NCBI GenBank assembly: GCA_050250895.1
Contig: JBFWNU010000006.1
Coordinates: forward strand, 1 to 55,412
Reading direction: 5' to 3'
From: Vulcanimicrobiota bacterium
GTDB taxonomy: Bacteria; Vulcanimicrobiota; Xenobia; Xenobiales; JADMJV01
DNA: 55,412 nucleotides
In this document: one piece after another, positions 21,097-50,768 of the stretch
Layout: every line of letters starts with the position of its first letter
How positions within the stretch are numbered: position 1 is the first letter of the stretch
The notes under the pieces: generated by a model
What the model saw: the letters and a program-made list of their open reading frames with translations, nothing else
Database searches by the model: none
Told to the model about the DNA's origin: nothing
Position numbers and translations under genes: made by a program

Positions 21097-21816
21097 GTGA
21101 ACGCTGAAGACGAAGCCAGAGCCAGACTCGAGGTCGCACAACTCTATGTAGAGATGGGCCAATTGCCCAAGGCGGCCCGCTACTATCTGGCCGCGGCTGA
21201 AATCTACCGAGACGCAGGTCTGGCCCACAAGGCTCGCGAGCTGTTGCTCAAAGTCATGGAATTCGAGCCCGGCAACGTCCAGGCTCAAGAGATGATCGGG
21301 TCGCTGGCCGGCACCCCCGGCGTCGGCGGCGCCCCCAGCGCGCCCGCCCGCCCGGCCGCCGCTCCCGCTGCCCAGACACCGGCCGCAGTGACCAGTGGCG
21401 GCGGAGCCGGCTCTGGGGCCGTGACTTCGCCGACACCATGTCTCTTCCTTCGCAAAGACCAGCAGGCGGCCGTGATGAGTCAGATCACCCAGGCTCCAGA
21501 CCCGGCCGCTTTCCCGTTCCAACCTCTTCCCCGAGTAGACGCCAGAGCCATGGCCAAGCGGCAAGAGGAGCGGCGCCAAGCCGAAGAAGCCATGCGCGTC
21601 AAAGACCGCACTCGTGTCGAGTCAGCCTTCGGCGGCGGGCCGGGCGGCCTCACGGCCGGTGGCGGCGGGTTGCTAGCCCAGGCCAAGCGGTCGGGCCAGG
21701 GCCGTCGCAAGGGCGACAGCACGGAAGACGAGGCTCCCAAGCGCGGCCCTCGGGGCGTCCGCAGCGGGAACACCGACCTGGCCGACGCCATCCGCCGTAA
21801 GCTCCAGGGGGGCTAG
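21097..21816 (+). CDS. Hypothetical protein with an N-terminal TPR-like domain and low-complexity linker
   Basis: AQLYVEMGQLPKAARYY...ARELLLKVMEFEPGN. Confidence 0.75.
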   Translation: MNAEDEARARLEVAQLYVEMGQLPKAARYYLAAAEIYRDAGLAHKARELLLKVMEFEPGNVQAQEMIGSLAGTPGVGGAPSAPARPAAAPAAQTPAAVTSGGGAGSGAVTSPTPCLFLRKDQQAAVMSQITQAPDPAAFPFQPLPRVDARAMAKRQEERRQAEEAMRVKDRTRVESAFGGGPGGLTAGGGGLLAQAKRSGQGRRKGDSTEDEAPKRGPRGVRSGNTDLADAIRRKLQGG

Positions 21817-21831
21817 ACCCGCCTGAAGGGC

Positions 21832-22153
21832 GGCGCTTTCGATAAAACCGCAAAGGCGCAAATGCGCCGAGAGGGACCTGGATCTCGCAGGTGAGCGCTC
21901 GAATTTGAGAAAACCGCGGAGATACGCGGTGGGCGCGGGGAGGGTCGCTTACCTGGAAGGTTGGCGCTTTCGATAAAACCGCAAAGGCGCAAAGGCGCCG
22001 AGAGGGACCTGGATCTCGCAGGTGAGCGCTCGAATTTGAGAAAACCGCGGAGATACGCGGTGGGCGCGGGGAGGGTCGCTTACCTGGAAGGTTGGCGCTT
22101 TCGATAGAACCGCAAAGGCGCAAAGGCGCCGAGAGGGACATGGATCTCGAAGG
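21832..22153 (+). repeat. 131-bp tandem repeat array, left block (~2.5 copies)
   Basis: Units starting GGCGCTTTCGATA(A/G)AACCGCAAAGGCGC at 21832, 21963 and 22094. Confidence 0.95.
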
Positions 22154-22312
22154 TTGAGCTCGCTTGTGTAATTTTTGGATCGGGCGGCTGGAACTGGGAC
22201 GGGAGCGCCTCTTCGAGCAAGCCGCAGGCGCACGGTGATCTCGGTGTTCAGATTCGCTTACCCGCTCAGGTGGAGGTCGAAGGTGCTCTAGCAAGCCCTG
22301 AGGAGCGAAAGT

Positions 22313-22600
22313 ATGGACTTTCTAGAATTGATCCAGGACTTAGAAGCCGAGTGGGATACAGGCTTTTTCGCCAAACTGCGCGTCAACGGTTTTGACCTGG
22401 ATGGATTTAAGCGCGTAGAGTTGCTCCTATTGAAGCTAAGTCATGAGACAGAAAGCTACCCACAGAGGCTCGTCGCGTTGACCTGGTTCATTCCTTTGTT
22501 CATGAGTTGGCAGGAAGCGCCAAATTTGGAGGCTCAGGAGTACAGGAATTACTGCAATCGTCTTGAGAAACTGGTGATGGAAGGTCTGGGGATGCCGTGA
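22313..22600 (+). CDS. Small orphan protein (95 aa) inside the repeat array; immunity-protein-like
   Basis: GAGGAG RBS, visibly lower GC; GFFAKLR..GFD, WFIPLFMSWQ, terminal LGMP. The immunity assignment is inference. Confidence 0.75.
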   Translation: MDFLELIQDLEAEWDTGFFAKLRVNGFDLDGFKRVELLLLKLSHETESYPQRLVALTWFIPLFMSWQEAPNLEAQEYRNYCNRLEKLVMEGLGMP

Positions 22601-22614
22601 CGCCGAGCCGCGAC

Positions 22615-23010
22615 GGCGCCGAGAGGGACATGGGCCTCGAAGGGCTCGAGTTGAGAAAACCGCGGAGATACGCGGTGGGCGCGGGGAGGGTCGCTTACCT
22701 GGAAGGTTGGCGCTTTCGATAAAACCGCAAAGGCGCAAAGGCGCCGAGAGGGACGCGGATCTCGCAGGTGAGCGCTCGAATTTGAGAAAACCGCGGAGAT
22801 ACGCGGTGGGCGCGGGGAGGGTCGCTTACCTGGAAGGTTGGCGCTTTCGATAAAACCGCAAAGGCGCAAAGGCGCCGAGAGGGACCTGGATCTCGCAGGT
22901 GAGCGCTCGAATTTGAGAAAACCGCGGAGATACGCGGTGGGCGCGGGGAGGGTCGCTTACCTGGAAGGTTGGCGCTTTCGATAAAACCGCAAAGGCGCCG
23001 AGACGCAGAG
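22615..23010 (+). repeat. 131-bp tandem repeat array, right block (~3 copies)
   Basis: Resumes mid-unit at 22615; unit starts at 22709, 22840 and 22971. Confidence 0.95.
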
Positions 23011-23352
23011 GGCGCAGTGCCTGAGAAATTAACCGCGGAGATCAGGAAGGCACGGAGAGGGTTGTGGGGGGCGTGGAGTGAGCGTCCTGGTGAATTTTAT
23101 GGGTTAGGATTTTACCCACTTCGAATGGGGTGCTCAAAACGGCGGTGGCTGCCCGATCCCCGCGTTAAAGACCCAGCAGGCGCACACGTTCAATGTGAGC
23201 GGTGCCTGAAGCGCGTCGGTCGTCCCGGCGCGTGGCGGAGGTCCCGGCCACCTCCTCCGTGGCCTCTGTGACCCACGAGCATCGACCGCCCAGTCGCCCC
23301 TCGGCCTTGACCACCGAGTGCGACTACGAGGGGTAAGCCCTCGATTGGCGTT

Positions 23353-23817
23353 TCACTCGCGATTCTCGGTCTCTTCTTCGCCCGTTTCGAAATCCTCGGG
23401 AAAGTCGTGCCGAATGGCGCACCCAAGGTTGCCGTCGTGATCAGCTAAGATGGTCCAGGCCCAAGTCGGGCACCACAAAGCTGAATCTCCTCCGAATTCC
23501 CGGAAGAACAAATCCAGGTCACTTGGGGATGGCAGACGAGCACAAGCGCAAAGATAGAGATCTCTACAGATTCTCTGTGGGAGGAAGTAGAAAGAAGTTC
23601 CCACAAATCCTCCAAAGGCTGCAATGGCACGCATTCCGAAGTATCGGCTATGCAGGGAGCGGCCCTCTTCAAAAGACGAGAATAACGGGGCTGATTTGCC
23701 ACCGACGCCGAAGTGCTGATTCCACGCTGCAAACTGTTTCTTGCGTTCGCGCGCAGGAAGCAAAACAGAAGTAGAACAGTTCCTGGCGATAAAGCGCTCT
23801 GCACGATCGAGGAACAT
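23353..23817 (-). CDS. Orphan hypothetical protein (154 aa)
   Basis: AGGAGG RBS 7 nt before the ATG; lower GC than the flanking housekeeping genes. Confidence 0.65.
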   Translation of the reverse strand: MFLDRAERFIARNCSTSVLLPARERKKQFAAWNQHFGVGGKSAPLFSSFEEGRSLHSRYFGMRAIAAFGGFVGTSFYFLPQRICRDLYLCACARLPSPSDLDLFFREFGGDSALWCPTWAWTILADHDGNLGCAIRHDFPEDFETGEEETENRE

Positions 23818-23934
23818 CCTATTGCCTCCTTGCTGGTGAAGGGGGGACTCCGGTGCCGCAGTACCAATTCCTCCGCGCCCCCCGCGGAACTCCGCGGTCT
23901 ACCACCCAGCAACCGCCAACGCTCCAGCCACACT

Positions 23935-23962
23935 CTCTGCGTCTCGGCGCCTCGGCGGTTTT
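23935..23962 (-). repeat. Inverted copy of the array core motif
   Basis: Reverse complement AAAACCGCCGAGGCGCCGAGACGCAGAG matches 22983..23010 at 26/28. Confidence 0.85.
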
Positions 23963-23974
23963 CACAGCGGGGGC

Positions 23975-25126
23975 CTAGGCCTGGGCCAGTTGCCCCTGAT
24001 TGCGCCGCAGGAAGTATTCTTGCGCCCGGGCCAGGGCGGGGGCGACATGTTCTTCGAATTTGAGCACAGCCTCGACGGCGGCTCGGAAGCAGTCCATGGG
24101 TAGGGCTTGTTTGGCATCGCAGAGCTGCTCGGGGCGGAAGGCTTCGGAGTGGATGATCTCGGTGATGGTGCCGGCCGGGCCGTAGGGCAGGGCGGACATG
24201 ATGTTCTCGACCACCAGGCGGTCGTCGCCGGCGGCGTGGCTGGGGTCGTAGATCACCGGCAAGATGGTTTTTTGCTGAGCAAAGCGGATGACGTTGAGAT
24301 CGGGGGTGAAGCGGTTGTAGCCTTTGCCCGCGAACATCGTCTTGACACCGCGCTCACAGAGGATGATTTCCAGGTTGTTCTGGTTGGCGATGTATTCGGC
24401 CGCGTTAAACCACTCTTCGGCGTCGTTACCGAAGCCTCGCTTGAGGATGACCGGTTTGCCCGTCTGGCCCACCGTCTCGAGCAGTTTGAAGTCCTGGGCG
24501 TTGCGAGTGCCGATCTGAAAGCAATCGAGATGGCCGGCCAGTTGCTCGACCAGGGTATGATCCATCACTTCAGAGACGTAAGGCAGGCCGGTCTCTTCGC
24601 GGACTCGGTCGAGCAGTGCGACGCCCTGCATGCCCAGCCCGCGAAAATCGGTGGGGCGGGTGCGCGGCTTGAAAGCGCCGGCCCGGAACATGACGCGGTC
24701 GCGAAGGCCATACTCGTCGGCCAGTTTGGCCACCTGACGCGCCTGGATGAAGACCTGCTCTTCGGTCTGGACCGAGTCGGGCCCCACCACGAAGATATGG
24801 CGGTTGTCTCCGAAGCGGCGCACGGCTCCGTCGGGGCCGCTGATCTCGACGATGCGATTGTCGCGGCTGACCGCCTGTCCGTCGCGGCCCGAGACGATGC
24901 GGGCGATGTTCTTGTAGCCCGACGAGATGCGCCAGGCCCGGGTGACGCCGGGCAGGCTCTCGATGTAGTCGAGGTGGTTGGCGACGGCGCGCACATCGCC
25001 AATGACGTGCAGCGTGTCATAGACTTCTTTGCCCTCGATGGTTTCGAGTTCGTTACCGTGCTGGGCCAGGAGTTTGCGAATAGAGTCAACAGTGGGGCTA
25101 TTGCCCTTGCGGATTTCGATGATCAT
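23975..25126 (-). CDS. aroF: 3-deoxy-7-phosphoheptulonate (DAHP) synthase, type I-beta, with an N-terminal regulatory domain
   Basis: RAGAFKPRT, QIGTRN, LKRGFG, LCERG, DPSH, CD..Q. Confidence 0.88.
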   Translation of the reverse strand: MIIEIRKGNSPTVDSIRKLLAQHGNELETIEGKEVYDTLHVIGDVRAVANHLDYIESLPGVTRAWRISSGYKNIARIVSGRDGQAVSRDNRIVEISGPDGAVRRFGDNRHIFVVGPDSVQTEEQVFIQARQVAKLADEYGLRDRVMFRAGAFKPRTRPTDFRGLGMQGVALLDRVREETGLPYVSEVMDHTLVEQLAGHLDCFQIGTRNAQDFKLLETVGQTGKPVILKRGFGNDAEEWFNAAEYIANQNNLEIILCERGVKTMFAGKGYNRFTPDLNVIRFAQQKTILPVIYDPSHAAGDDRLVVENIMSALPYGPAGTITEIIHSEAFRPEQLCDAKQALPMDCFRAAVEAVLKFEEHVAPALARAQEYFLRRNQGQLAQA

Positions 25127-43421: not shown

Positions 43422-43776
43422 AGAAGGGAGCCGCTGCGCGGAGAAAGGAGCAGTGGCTGCGCCACTGAGACGGGAGCGCTAACTTCGCTTGCGCTCGTTA
43501 GCGGGAGAGGGGCGAGGTTCGCTTTGGCTCACCTCGAGATTTTAAGGTACACGACGCTCCGCGTCGTAACACGGGCGCGGCAAGCCGCGAAGTCCGACCC
43601 CCCGGGCCGAAGGCCTCGAAGGTTTGCGGCCGCAGGCCGCCTATCCATCCCTCGAAGCGAGCGACAGCGAGTTTCGCTCCCCCCTCGGAGCTCTGCTCCG
43701 CTCCCCTCTCCGGCCAAAGGCCGGCTCCTTTCTCGGCCACATCGTGGCCGCTTCGCTCTCGCGAGCGTAGCGAGCG
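43422..43776 (-). repeat. Hairpin-chain element, inverted copy
   Basis: Reverse complement of 48279..48638 and of ~49281..49640. Confidence 0.92.
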
Positions 43777-43777
43777 C

Positions 43778-46700
43778 CTACTGCCGGATGTCGAGCTGGA
43801 AGTCGTTGATGGTGACGGTTTGCTCGTCCATTTCGAGGCTGCCGCCGGCCTGGCGGCTAGCCAGGAAGTTGTTCCAGGCCGTCTCGACGTTGGGAGAGAG
43901 GACATACTCGTGGGCCAGTTGGGTGACGGCCTTGCCCAGGTCGGGCAGGTTTAGGTTGTAGAGTCGGCCGAGCAATACCAGGCCGTCTCCGTTGGGAATT
44001 CCGCTCAGGGTCTTGAGGCCTTTGAGCAAGTCGGGATTGGGATCTTTGGCGATGCGCGCCACCGATTCGGCGGCCGTCTTGCCACCGTCATCGCGATAGA
44101 CCGTGCCGTCTGAGTCTTTCACCTCGAGAGCCTTGAGCCAGAATCCGTCTTTCTCGTTGCTGCCGTCACTGGTGAAGTGAAAGCGCAGGCGGACCTGGCC
44201 GACTTGCTCGGGCAGGTTGAGGGTGGTCGGCCCGCTGCTGGTGCCGGTGAACTCTTGGAGATTGTTCCAGGTCTGACCGTCGCTCGACCAGGCCAGGGCC
44301 ACCTTGTCATACCCCTGCTCGAGATCATAGTCGAGGTCGAGGCTCACGGTGGCGGCTTTGCCCCGCAGCCCGAAGGGCGGGGTGATCAAGCTCTTGGATT
44401 GGTTGGACTGATAAGGACCATAGGGGCTCTCGCTCCAACCGTGGCTGGTGCGGGTCCAGCCGTCGCTGTGCCAGCCCGCTTCCGGGGCTGACTTCAAGAG
44501 GGCCAGGATAGCCTCGGCGGTGGCTGGTTCGATGCTCATTTCGCCGGGCTCGGCCACGCCCAGGGCCTTGAGTTCTTCCGCCACCAGACGACCTGACAGG
44601 CGGGCTCCCACACCGGGGCCGGGAGCGAGTCCATCGGCGACGGCCCGGGCCCGGGCCGCACCGAAGTTGGTGGCCGTCAGCATGACCGTGCGAGCGAAGT
44701 CGCCAAAGTCGGGATGCTCGCGGTGAGGGTGCAGCACCGAGAAGACCTGCATGGCGGCATGGACGTTGCCTAGAGCCTGGGCGAGTTCATAGATGGCTTC
44801 GCACCCTTCCAGAGCCTGCTCCCGGTCGCCCGCAAACAGGGCTTTGATCGTATCGAGTTCGATTCGACGCTCTTCGGGAACGTCGGTCATCAGAGTTTGC
44901 TCACCGTCGCGCACCCGAAAATTGCGCATGGCGAATCCGTCCATGGCGTTGGAGGCGTCGGTGACTTCGCGCAAGCGCAACCGCAGGGGACCGCCTGCGA
45001 AGGGCTGGAGAGGAACCGAGACAGCGGTCCAGGCCTCGAGGGGGCCGGTGAATGCCTTCAGTTCGTGCCACTGGCCATCGCCCCGGCTGGCTTCTAGCAA
45101 CACCTTGTCATAGTTTTGCTCGAGCTGGTGGCGAGCCTCGAATTCGACCACCGGGGCCGCTGCCCCGGCCAGGTTCAGGGGATGCGTAGTCAGCGACTGA
45201 TTGGCGTTCAAAGCATAATCGCGACCGGGCAAACTGTCGAGCCAGACCGGGCCCCGGCGGCGCCATTCGCCTTCGGCGGTCCACAGGGACAAGCCCTGGG
45301 CGAGTTTGGTCAGGGCCGGTTCGTGGTCGAGTTGGAGACGGGTCAGATTGTCGGTCAACTCGACCAGATCGTCTAGCCGCGGGGCCTGAGAGGTGCCTTT
45401 GAGCAATTCCTGAGCGAGGTCCCAACTCCGCATGGCCCGCTCGACGTTTTGTTCGACATCTCCTTCGAGCACTCGGGTGGCCAGCCGTTGGGTGGGTTCG
45501 ACTCCCAGCTTTCCGATCATCGGCGCCAGGGCTTGGGTGGGTTGCGATTGCAGCGACGGCCAGAGCTTGAGGGCGGTCGCCGCACTGCCGATTGCCTCAG
45601 CCAGCCCAGCTAAAGCGGGCACCTGGGCCGGCGTTTGGCCGGCAAACTCGTGCAGCCCCTCGAGTGTCAGGCGACGGCCTTCGGCTCCCGCGTCGAATAG
45701 GACCTCCGGTTCGCGTTCGGGAGCGTAGTTGCGCCGGCCTTCGAGCTTGAGGTCCTTGAGAAAGAATCCCTCACCGTCGTTGGAGGCATCGGAGGTGAGG
45801 TGGAAGCGAATCCAGACCCGTCCGCCTTCAAAAGGAGTCAGGTCGTAGTGCTGGTCGCTCCAGCCGGAGTCTCCGGTGTAGCTGGCCAGGGTGGTAAACG
45901 TATGACCGTCGCTGGACGCCTGCAGGTCGACCTTGTCATAGCCCTTCTCGAGCTGATGGCGAGAGGTAAACGACAACCGGGTTCCGGCCGCGTGGGTGAG
46001 GTCGATGGGCTCGAGCGTAAGCGAGTCGTTGCGGTTCATTCCGTAACCGCCGTTGGGATTGGTGCACCATTGGCCGGGCTCGTTCTGGCCCCACACGCCG
46101 CCGCAATCAAACGGCGAGCGCACGGCCAGCTCGACCAACCGTCCGAAGCTCTGAGGTTCGACGCCCTGGGATTTCAGCTGGTCATACAGGCCAAGAGCGT
46201 GCTCTAGCCCGTTGCGACTTAGCTCGGAGGCGGCCGAGAAGAGAGCAATCTTGTCGGTCACCGCGCCCTCCTTTTCGAGCAAAGCCCGGGCCGGTCGCAT
46301 GCCCAGGGCAGACTCGAGTTGACGAGCCGCCTCCAGCTGGTCAGAACCTTCCAGGGCCAGCCCTACCAACAGCGCCGATTGCTGGGGCTGGTCGAGGCGG
46401 GCCAATCCTTCCAGGCGAGATTTTAGCAGCTCGCTCGGGGCATCGCCGTCGAGCAAATCGGCCAACACTCGGCCAGCCGTGTTCTCGGCTTCGAAAAGGT
46501 CCTCGGCCGGTCCGCCGTAGGCCGGGGTAGCCAGCAGTTTGACCTCGCTCAAGCGGCTCGCCGGGCCGTCGTTGCTGGCGTCTGAGGTCAGTCGAAAGCG
46601 TACTTCGGCGGCCTGGCCGTCGAAGGCACTCAGAGAATACTCGTGTTTTCCGCTGGTGGTTCCGGTGAAAGCCTCCAACGGCTGCCACGCGCCGGCCGGC

Positions 46701-48178: not shown

Positions 48179-48220
48179 ATCCCCAGCCTATCGCCAGACC
48201 CTGAAAAATCGGTGAAGCGC

Positions 48221-48660
48221 GGCGCTCGCTGTGCTCGCGCGACGGGAGCGGCCACGTTGTGGCCGAGAAGGGAGCCGACGCTCGCTGTGCTCGCGAGAAG
48301 GGAGCGGCCACGATGTGGCCGAGAAGGGAGCCGGCCTTTGGCCGGAGAGGGGAGCGGAGCAGAGCTCCGAGGAGGGAGCGAAACTCGCTGTCGCTCGTTT
48401 CGGGTGGTCAGATAGGCGGCCTGCGGCCGCAACCCTTCGATGGCCTTCGGCCAGAGCCGGGCCGAATTTTGCGGCTTGCCGCACCAGTGTTACGACGCGA
48501 AGCGTCGTGTACCTCAAAATCTCGAGGTGAGCCAAAGCGAACCTCGCCCCTTTTCCCGCTAACGAGCGCAAGCGAAGTTAGCGCTCCCATCTCAGCGGCG
48601 CAGCCGCTGCTCCCACCTCCGCGTAGCGGCTCCCTTCTCGCCGGCTACGCCGGCGCCGCT
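48221..48660 (+). repeat. Hairpin-chain element, with its first ~57-bp module duplicated
   Basis: Chain of ~15-bp palindromes joined by GAGAAGGGAG / CTCCCTTCTC linkers. Confidence 0.92.
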
Positions 48661-48709
48661 TGGACATTCGTTCGACGGGAGGGGGTTTGGAGGCGGCGAA
48701 GATGAGTCG

Positions 48710-49069
48710 ATGCATTCTCAACCTTATCAAAAACTGGTCACCTGGCAGCGAGCCATGGACCTTGTGCCTAAAATCTATAAACTAACCAACGACATCCCCC
48801 CACACGAGCAGTTTGGCCTCATCAGCCAGATTCAGCGCGCTAGCGTTTTGATCGCGGCCAACATCGCCGAGGGTCAGACGCGCGAGTCGCCGCGAGCGTT
48901 TGCCTATCATCTCAGCCTCGCCCGCGGTAAGCTGGCGCAGGTCGAGACCCTGCTTCAGATCGCCCTCAAGCTCCACTACATTCGCCCCGCCCAGGTGGAT
49001 GCTTTGAAGGGCAATCTGGCCGACCTGCGCCGCCTGCTCGCTGGGCTGGTTCGAAAGGTCGAGGCGTGA
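48710..49069 (+). CDS. Four-helix-bundle protein (23S rRNA IVP / bAvd-like family)
   Basis: L.TWQRAMDL...IY.LT...P..E.FGL.SQI.RA.V.I.ANIAEG...F...L..ARG...ET.L.IA..L.Y. Confidence 0.95.
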   Translation: MHSQPYQKLVTWQRAMDLVPKIYKLTNDIPPHEQFGLISQIQRASVLIAANIAEGQTRESPRAFAYHLSLARGKLAQVETLLQIALKLHYIRPAQVDALKGNLADLRRLLAGLVRKVEA

Positions 49070-49787
49070 TGCTCGCTGTGCTCGCGAGAAGGGAGCCGAC
49101 GCTCGCTTTGCTCGCGAGAAGAGAGCGGCCACGTTGTGGCCGAGAAAGGAGCCGGCCTTGGGCCGGAGAGGGGAGCGGAGCAGAGCTCCGAGGAGGGAGC
49201 GAAACTCGCTGTCGCTCGTTTCGAGGGATGGATAGGCGGCCTTAGGCCGCAACCCTTGGATGGCCTTCGGCCAGAGCCGGCGCTCGCTATGCTCGCGAGA
49301 AGGGAGCGGCCACGTTGTGGCCGAGAAAGGAGCCGGCCTTGGGCCGGAGAGGGGAGCGGAGCAGAGCTCCGAGGAGGGAGCGAAACTCGCTGTCGCTCGT
49401 TTCGAGGGTAAGATAGGCGGCCTGCGGCCGCAACCCTTGGATGGCCTTCGGCCCGGGGGGTCGGACTTCGCGGCTTGCCGCGCCCGAATTACGACGCGAA
49501 GCGTCGTGTACCTTAAGAACTCGAGGTGAGCCAAAGCGAACCTCGCTCCTTCCTCGCTAACGAGCGCAAGCGAAGTTAGCGCTCCCATCTCAGCGGCGCA
49601 GCCGCTGCTCCCACCTCCGCGTAGCGGCTCCCTTCTCGCCGGCGTAGCCGGCGCCGCTCCCATCTCAGCGGCGCAGCCGCTGCTCCCACCTCCGCGTAGC
49701 GGCTCCCTTCTCGCCGGCGTAGCCGGCGCCGCTCCCTTCTCGCAAGCGAAGCGACGCGCTCCCTTCTCGCCGGCTACGCCGGCGCCG
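49070..49787 (+). repeat. Expanded hairpin-chain element with internal 181-bp and 75-bp tandem duplications
   Basis: Duplicated blocks start at 49100/49281 and 49581/49656; the element fills the whole gap between two convergent stop codons. Confidence 0.92.
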
Positions 49788-50768
49788 CTAGCCGAACAGC
49801 TTGCTGACCGAAAGGTTGAAATAGTTGCGCCGAATGGCTTCGCCTAAAAGGGGAGCGACCGAGAGCACCGTGACTTTGCCGCGTTGGGCCGAGGAGGCCA
49901 CTGGAATGGTGTCGGTGACGATCACTTCTTCCAGGGGCGAGGCCTCGATCAGATCTACGGCGTTGCCGGCGAAGAGAGCGTGGGTGGCGGCCGCGAAGGC
50001 CCGCTTGGCGCCTCGCTCCATGAGCATCTCGACGCCGCGCACCAGGGTGTTGCCGGTCGAGATGATATCGTCGACGATCAACACCGTCTTGCCTTCGATT
50101 TCACCCACCAGGTCGATCACGTCGATGGCGTCGGGGCGGGGGCGGCGTTTGAAGATGATGGCCAGGCCTGCGCCCAGACGCTCGGCGAACATGCGGGCGC
50201 GGTTCACGCCTCCGGCGTCGGGCGAGACCACGACCAGGTCTTCCTTGGGAAAGTTCTTGCGGCGGAAATACTCGACCACGATTGGCATGGCCATCAGGTT
50301 GTCCACCGGAATGTCGAAGAAGCCCTGAATGGCAGCCGCGTGCAGGTCGACCGTGACCACGCGGTCGGCCCCGGCGGTAGTGATCAGGTTGGCTACCAGT
50401 TTGGCCGTGATGGGTTCGCGACCGGCCGTCTTCTTTTCCTGGCGGGCGTAGCCATAGTAGGGGATGACGGCGGTGATGGTCTTGGCCGAAGAGCGGCTCA
50501 GGGCGTCGCACATAATGAGCAATTCCATCAGTGTCTCGTTGACGTTGCCGCAGGTCGGCTGCACCACGAAGACCTCGGCCCCGCGCACGTTCTCTTCGAT
50601 CTGGACCCGGATCTCGCCGTTGGTGAAACGGGACACCAGCGCGTCACCGAGAGAGACCTCCAGATACTCCGAAATCGCCTGGGCCAGCCTGGGGTTGGCG
50701 TTGCCGGTGAAGACAACGATATTCTCACCCTCGAGGGCTGGCTGCTCCCTCTCTTCCAGAACTAACAT
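49788..50768 (-). CDS. prs: Ribose-phosphate pyrophosphokinase
   Basis: FTNGE, PYYGYARQEKK, DLH, VVSPDAGG, IVDDIISTGNT. Start is 50768 or 50777. Confidence 0.97.
   Translation of the reverse strand: MLVLEEREQPALEGENIVVFTGNANPRLAQAISEYLEVSLGDALVSRFTNGEIRVQIEENVRGAEVFVVQPTCGNVNETLMELLIMCDALSRSSAKTITAVIPYYGYARQEKKTAGREPITAKLVANLITTAGADRVVTVDLHAAAIQGFFDIPVDNLMAMPIVVEYFRRKNFPKEDLVVVSPDAGGVNRARMFAERLGAGLAIIFKRRPRPDAIDVIDLVGEIEGKTVLIVDDIISTGNTLVRGVEMLMERGAKRAFAAATHALFAGNAVDLIEASPLEEVIVTDTIPVASSAQRGKVTVLSVAPLLGEAIRRNYFNLSVSKLFG

Follow-up and report, generated by a model that had tools for sequence, protein, structure and literature searches.

A likely orphan immunity gene within a REP/BIME-like repeat mosaic of a Vulcanimicrobiota bacterium

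Between two convergent core genes in the DNA that we analysed (the window, a stretch of 55 412 nt on contig C6 of the source genome, G000) lies a mosaic of short repeats and, inside it, a small gene, ORF1, which is likely to encode an orphan immunity protein. Our preferred explanation, held with moderate confidence, is that the mosaic is of the REP/BIME type and that its repeats have supplied the homology through which ordinary recombination, with no recombinase of its own, moved the gene and reshuffled the locus. The whole looks like a single busy hotspot in a REP/BIME-like mosaic without a RAYT gene, rather than an integron-like cassette system.

Results

Organization of the locus

Tandem Repeats Finder delimited two arrays of period 131, at 21825–22159 (2.5 copies) and 22644–22998 (2.7 copies). 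Four complete 131-bp units are present, 98–100% alike: relative to the unit at 21963, those at 21832, 22709 and 22840 are identical at 130, 129 and 131 of 131 bases, respectively, and private differences between units occur at 21863 and at 22755–22756. To this extent the tandem array of the original prediction was confirmed, but two copies that it had also counted as units, at 22094 and 22971, are partial, with lengths of about 66 and 40 nt. Each full unit consists of a 74-nt module, A0, followed by a 57-nt module, B, which has a CCGCG-loop-CGCGG hairpin, and the order along the window is (A0-B)(A0-B) A1-linker-ORF1-A2-B (A0-B)(A0-B).

All features are on the forward strand unless stated otherwise. 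The left flanking core gene (21097–21816), which has a TPR-like N-terminus by weak TPR matches and an orthologue in five of five relatives, is convergent with the right flanking core gene, a member of the DAHP synthase family (23975–25126, reverse strand; PF00793, E 3.5e-50). The left core gene is followed by two full A0-B units (21832–22093), by module A1, the repeat copy at the left junction (22094–22159), and by a repeat-related linker (22160–22235), which is also found in a sister strain and loosely resembles a mosaic at C1:3252.4 kb. A 54-nt internal fragment of dnaN comes next (22236–22289; 92% over 63 nt to C1:1146444–1146506) and then, at 22290–22312, what is likely to be the stub of a lost toxin gene's last codons, judged from a short match, in which a stop codon overlaps the Shine–Dalgarno motif. 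ORF1 itself (22313–22600) encodes an all-helical protein of 95 amino acids. Module A2, the repeat copy at the right junction, starts at 22601, the first base past the ORF1 stop codon, and over its first 14 nt it resembles a different subfamily (C1:3252558); together with a module B it occupies 22601–22708, a segment 11 nt shorter in the sister strain. Two further A0-B units (22709–22970) are of the same type as those to the left of ORF1.

It had been claimed that the array is interrupted by a lower-GC gene with its own ribosome-binding site, and this holds: the 95-residue reading frame has a GC content of 0.49, compared with 0.63 for the window, and GAGGAG upstream. The description of the insert as about 460 bp carrying one gene was right as regards the gene, but the insert proved to be a mosaic of repeat-related DNA, then the dnaN piece, then ORF1. 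At the start of the contig (69–346), the window also contains an 84-bp tandem array of a different hairpin repeat family.

To the right of the second array, an inverted repeat of 28 nt (93%) brackets a block containing a second gene, ORF2. The left arm lies at 22983–23010 and is followed by a second dispersed repeat module, R2 (23019–23158), with 42 profile matches in the genome; the right arm (23935–23962) forms part of an inverted copy of the repeat family (23873–23966, reverse strand). ORF2 (23353–23817, reverse strand; 154 amino acids), 750 bp from ORF1, is likewise low in GC (0.53) and has AAGGAGG upstream. Its homologues were found at 89% and 78%, and its look-alikes among Atlas clusters, DUF6756, DUF4275 and CdiI_ImmP, fall below the bar for naming a family; it is possibly a second orphan immunity gene, which we offer as a lead only. 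Elsewhere in the same genome, at C8:364062–364220, a piece from the 3′ end of an ORF2-like gene (70% over 37 amino acids) stands by itself next to an HNH gene and an Rhs tip–immunity module.

The junction copies

The original prediction drew its main argument from two 29-bp stretches at the junctions, 22125–22153 and 22615–22643, which do agree at 27 of 29 positions. The match is not diagnostic, however, as the left junction agrees equally well (26–27/29) with the four ordinary units, and the two shared variants, ACATGG and CGAAGG, are missing only from the window's other units and occur in other parts of the genome. Among 16 copies outside the locus, as caught by one pattern, TCGAAGG occurs four times, ACATG once and CGCAGG not at all. 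CGAAGG is thus the common state of the repeat family, and CGCAGG is restricted to the expanded units. The junction pair is two copies of the repeat family and not a target-site duplication. By the latter we mean a short exact direct repeat private to both ends of the insert, and we rejected it because 27/29 is no better than the match to ordinary units and because the right copy of the sister strain is without 11 nt.

A joint from 22643 to 22154, as would be left by a circle, was not seen in contigs of other strains from seven runs, and neither was a gene-free allele bearing the repeats. A joint that goes back 606 nt (22778 to 22173) was considered as a circle and rejected as a mapping effect, because the single left copy of the sister strain maps best onto the window's right array. 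The best match of that copy is the ACGCGG unit, and from this mapping we infer that it carries ACGCGG. A 24-nt repeat pattern retrieved no stretches from metagenome contigs.

The repeat family in the genome

Searching for the 131-bp unit in the genome and its relatives, as had been proposed, revealed a dispersed family but little of it outside G000. BLAST returned 47 matches in G000, and profiles of the modules gave 62 clusters, while among 15 other genomes of the taxonomic family only one gave a match, and that marginal (E 0.008). The repeat is dispersed, lineage-specific, extragenic, hairpin-forming and REP/BIME-like; the hairpins of the unit have fold z values of −1.7 to −2.7. Tandem expansions are common in the family, and its clusters are mosaics with other repeat modules, which fill most of the gaps between copies. 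No Y1/RAYT gene was found (no match to PF01797 in a genome 99.6% complete), and a reading as structured RNA was rejected, the single Rfam match, at 22 bits against a cut-off of 50, being taken as chance.

Thirty of the 62 clusters contain at least two separate copies, giving 44 gaps between copies. Only five gaps contain at least 150 nt of unique DNA, and a low-GC stretch with a convincing gene occupies just two, both at this locus, so that a genome-wide cassette system is not supported. Of 90 small low-GC ORFs, ORF1 alone has repeats on both sides, compared with 6 of 2321 ordinary small genes (Fisher p 0.23).

Several other repeat-associated arrangements were observed. Between inward-facing copies at C2:872292–872756 lie 465 bp of unique DNA (GC 0.61) with no convincing gene. 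A 35–40-nt repeat, CRISPR-like in number with about 180–190 near-identical copies on several G000 contigs, dominates the k-mer census. Within the window, a gene for a four-helix bundle of the 23S_rRNA_IVP family (PF05635; 48755–49069) lies inside a repeat mosaic (48214–49789), modules of which recur inverted at 43422–43796, and a second gene of this family, at C8:174162–174491, is likewise bracketed by repeats. Finally, the last part of the gene at C6:494.4 kb (its 3′ end) and the repeat behind it recur as a short copy 3.3 kb away, at C6:491040–491130.

ORF1 and its homologues

The gene had been taken for an orphan, but homologues are known, among them a paralogue (64%) in the same genome at C3:181953–182240, directly downstream of a fragment of an RHS-core gene with a toxin tip. 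Homologues lie directly behind the same toxin tip at three further loci (L017, L095 and L096), where the tips are 51–53% identical to that on C3. The pairing thus occurs at four of the nine homologue loci examined, a count that leaves out L022 with its 20-residue match, and no such tip is present at the other five (L002/L021, L018, L019, L020 and L097). A profile of the four tips matched chain B of PDB entry 9ZDM (E 9e-14); the C3 tip, searched alone, gave no match. Entry 9ZDM is RhsF-CT/RhsFi of Chromobacterium violaceum, and the chain matched is RhsF-CT, an antibacterial toxin reported to have an ADP-ribosyltransferase fold (10.64898/2025.12.06.692724).

Because homologues follow the same Rhs toxin tip at four of nine loci, ORF1 is likely to be an orphan immunity gene, and its product would protect against an Rhs C-terminal toxin of the ADP-ribosyltransferase type. 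The assignment to immunity rests on gene order, since five of the nine loci are without the toxin and ORF1 gave no match to Pfam, NCBIfam, PDB sequences or, by Foldseek, to known folds. Its model has a pLDDT of 94.7, and its best named Atlas cluster was Imm41, at 0.78, which we treat as a lead only. The family numbers at least 180 proteins, all without a name. The bases before ORF1, AAG CCC TGA GGAG, correspond closely to the end of the C3 toxin gene, AGA CCT TGA GGAG. We read ORF1 as an orphan immunity gene that was probably cut from a toxin–immunity operon. No promoter-like site was found upstream of it. The benefit of the gene would likely be protection from a neighbour's toxin.

Some features of the wider family are noted here as anecdotal: two of the toxin-less homologues adjoin short tandem or palindromic repeats, at L002:1280–1480 (genome G006) and at L020:3750–3790 (a Chloroflexota genome). 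As a separate observation, an HNH endonuclease gene lies no more than 3 kb from 12 of 19 RHS-core positions, including C3:181953–184703 of G000, and six of the 12 stand next to copies 95–100% identical. The repeats in which these dispersed modules of toxin tip and immunity gene end are shared among them, and the modules may be mobile units linked to HNH genes.

The dnaN fragment

The donor of 22236–22289 was identified by Pfam as dnaN, the gene for the beta clamp, and in two codons the piece and the dnaN gene of G000 differ at the third position. It is absent from sister strains, a joint of 22218 to 22290 being found in X1 and X2. A screen of 3677 intergenic stretches yielded 19 candidate stray gene fragments, and among the eight of these that were inspected the dnaN piece was the only fragment of a single-copy housekeeping gene.

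Comparison with sister strains and relatives

One sister contig, from X2 (2573 nt), carries the left core gene, one B-A unit, the linker, ORF1, a repeat and then ORF2 on the opposite strand. Its left joint recurs in X1, from another study, and in X4, and appears in X3 as a 68-nt skip; contigs of X2 and X4 span 22173–22235, and those of X6 and X7 match 22168–22221 and then continue into other DNA. Compared with the window, the sister has ORF1 at the same site, but without the tandem array and the dnaN piece, with the ORF2 block inverted and with a right junction copy that is shorter by 11 nt. ORF1 and ORF2, opposed in the window, are co-directional in the sister strain and separated by repeats. 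The strains differ at this locus in the expansion of the tandem, in the inversion of one block, in two small deletions and in the dnaN insert.

In more distant relatives the site takes other forms. The stop codons of the two core genes abut in G006, with no repeats, representing the empty ancestral state; G002 and G010 have a methyltransferase-like gene (labelled by eye) in the gap, also with no repeats; G001 has a different neighbour at the site and the sequence of G004 ends there. A homologue of ORF1 is found in one of 40 relatives, where it is distant and at another locus.

The divergence between the window and its sister is uneven. Silent differences number 4 of 58 sites in ORF1 (0.07) and at least 28 of 81.4 in the flanking core genes (0.34; Fisher p 9e-5, or 5e-4 if one unlisted ORF1 difference is counted as silent), a baseline of about 2.2 kb of neighbouring genes in one sister lineage seen in two studies. 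Overall, the flanks differ at 181 of 2218 positions, the piece containing ORF1 at 10 of 368 and ORF2 at 24 of 451; five of the nine ORF1 differences listed change the protein. A third strain, X6, on a contig not bridged to the locus, gave 3/157 against 113/1050. In the left flank, divergence persists to 21810, which is 6 nt short of the stop codon, and the low-divergence tract starts within about 30 nt of the first repeat. An accessory gene inherited vertically would be expected to be at least as diverged at silent sites as its neighbours. It is therefore likely that exchange of the block took place once the strains had separated, with the left end of the exchange at a repeat. The roughly five-fold lower silent divergence of ORF1 points to inter-strain exchange with breakpoints at the repeats. 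The mobile block of gene plus repeat that had originally been proposed survives as probable mobility from strain to strain, with ends at repeats, but not as the product of a duplicated target or as part of a genome-wide cassette system.

Discussion

Origin of the present arrangement

From these comparisons, we propose that ORF1 was cut from a toxin–immunity operon together with a few bases of the toxin end, and that an illegitimate or end-joining step linked it to repeat DNA. The resulting A1-linker-ORF1-A2-B unit would then have entered a resident (A0-B)n array by one crossover in the 57-bp module B. A single crossover there accounts both for the same A0-B units on the two sides and for the A1 and A2 variants that the array lacks; A1 and A2 would both arrive with the cargo and so would not represent a duplicated target. 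RecA-type exchange through the repeats may subsequently have spread the block between strains after the split of the core genes, and the dnaN piece would have been pasted in later, by microhomology (SPDIR-like annealing) or by Ku-type repair, and either route could also underlie the first capture of ORF1; Ku, DprA and ComEC are encoded in G000. Recombination at the repeat is retained from the earlier reading, with the crossover moved to module B and with general recombination, as we infer, being sufficient. Later expansion with gene conversion between the flanks can yield the same layout, and is the main rival to the crossover.

The strongest competitor to this account as a whole, though we regard it as unlikely, holds that the repeats were passive: ORF1 made one illegitimate landing in a repeat-filled spacer, slippage and gene conversion enlarged the arrays around it, and a later exchange took in the whole 2.1-kb spacer, by homology-facilitated illegitimate recombination near the gene ends. 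It draws strength from the two-sided repeats, which among small low-GC ORFs are no more frequent than background, from the sister strain, which has ORF1 without a tandem array, from the frequency of tandem expansion in the family, and from ORF2, which is also less diverged than the flanks, so that the block may have moved as a whole. The position of the left breakpoint, so close to the first repeat, speaks against it, as does the absence of the A0-B junction from both flanks of ORF1 in the sister strain, since both arrays then need a third source.

Rather more doubtful is the suggestion that the repeats are sites of dedicated DNA capture, at which a trans-acting enzyme cuts and foreign or own DNA is inserted to build cassette arrays. 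The best candidate is the GxxExxY nuclease, whose single gene in G000 (C9:221510–221863; L016), lying between two sugar-pathway genes (labelled by eye), is framed by inward-facing, inverted copies of the family (E 3e-9 and 0.002). Across the phylum, 15 of 23 near-complete GxxExxY loci score higher for such repeat frames than the 95th percentile of 600 control genes, a count that leaves out 9 of 32 rows (partial matches or no locus) and includes kin that are not independent; the framing repeats differ in flavour from genome to genome. We did not find a link between GxxExxY genes and repeats in literature searches. Under this suggestion the nuclease would cut the repeats, short pieces (the two immunity genes and, at the same junction, the 54-nt dnaN piece) would be taken up by end-joining and the repeats would carry the catch between strains. 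It is in keeping with the repeat-like DNA that adjoins both ends of the ORF1 piece and the dnaN piece, with entry of dnaN at the left junction of ORF1, and with the co-directional, repeat-separated ORF1 and ORF2 of the sister strain. It sits poorly, however, with the occurrence of low-GC genes in only two gaps, both here, with the rarity of stray gene fragments in spacers, with the lack of an integron integrase or a RAYT, and with four relatives that have a GxxExxY gene above the cut-off but not the repeat family. Were it nevertheless true, the locus would represent a recombinase-free system of acquired interbacterial defence and would give a first function to a widespread nuclease–repeat pair; should these sites be opened by the GxxExxY nuclease, its role could be tested directly at this locus.

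That the tandem copies are an assembly artefact, the real locus having one repeat on each side of the gene, is very improbable: the sister has no tandem, N gaps occur within a related array at C1:3251.5 kb and reads of the source strain were not found (the best share of words was 0.11), but the locus itself contains no N, its units carry private differences, with CGCAGG occurring nowhere else, and the gene, the flanking repeats and the locus were confirmed by independent contigs.

Relationship to known systems

We return to recombination through the repeats as the preferred reading and consider the systems that the locus resembles. An integron cassette is a single promoterless gene that has its own ribosome-binding site and lies between repeats, and ORF1 shares this appearance. 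An attC site carries RYYYAAC and GTTRRRY 40–140 nt apart after the gene. No such pair occurs on either strand in 21801–24000, in agreement with the original view that the array is not attC-like. The accompanying statement that the window encodes no recombinase also stands, for the 42 window proteins scanned (five called genes were left out) and the two flanking genes. In the whole genome, the integron integrase model TIGR02249 gave 19 partial matches, none above the cut-off, and PF00589 gave 15, none on C6. Thus, unlike integron cassettes, the locus is without IntI, the attC core pair and a cassette array, and we rejected membership of integrons, of rAID-1 (no XerD-like recombinase) and of RAYT systems (no PF01797).

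As a single locus with no dedicated enzyme evident, it is of moderate interest and does not constitute a new cassette system. Its cargo, likely an antitoxin gene, belongs to an unnamed family of at least 180 members that can now be linked to an Rhs toxin of ADP-ribosyltransferase-like type. The tip that accompanies ORF1 homologues is related to RhsF-CT, but the ORF1 family matches no PDB chain by sequence or fold, RhsFi among them. In titles and opening abstracts of the literature searched, orphan immunity genes inside REP arrays were not found.

Published accounts allow a closer placing. REP, REPIN and BIME elements are described as short, hairpin-forming extragenic repeats, dispersed and lineage-specific, which occur in tandem and mosaic clusters (PMC3116915); these REP-like features are all present here but, unlike REPIN–RAYT systems, the family has no RAYT and frames a GxxExxY gene instead. 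The rAID-1 arrays of Bacteroidales comprise up to 31 low-GC orphan immunity genes with repetitive intergenic sequences and a XerD-like recombinase at the 5′ end (10.1101/471110). Repetitive intergenic sequences between low-GC genes are shared with our locus, which by comparison has no XerD-like recombinase and only one or two genes, and the repeat of which belongs to a family spread over the genome. At Rhs and T6SS loci, arrays of orphan immunity genes are reported to be horizontally acquired, with homology-facilitated illegitimate recombination proposed and no integrase (PMC5361080); there the orphans stay downstream of the effector locus, whereas ORF1 lies between repeats and at a distance from every Rhs gene. 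SPDIR microindels are reported to be own or foreign pieces of up to about 100 bp integrated at microhomologies (10.1101/2023.11.22.568220), and the dnaN piece fits this size, although it is a pure insertion relative to the sister and the nearby microhomologies, of only about 4 nt, are offset.

Closest in proposed working are the neisserial NIME/dRS3 arrays, dispersed hairpin repeats which have been proposed as portable homology for the entry of genes and their movement between strains (PMC1797815). On that proposal the two would work alike, but the present repeats are of unrelated sequence and belong to another phylum, there is no dRS3, and what the array holds as cargo is a probable orphan immunity gene. 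Being without dRS3, a XerD-like recombinase or a linked effector locus, our locus is a member of none of the NIME, rAID-1 or orphan immunity arrays; it is, rather, a natural case for the NIME-based proposal that dispersed hairpin repeats can act as portable homology.
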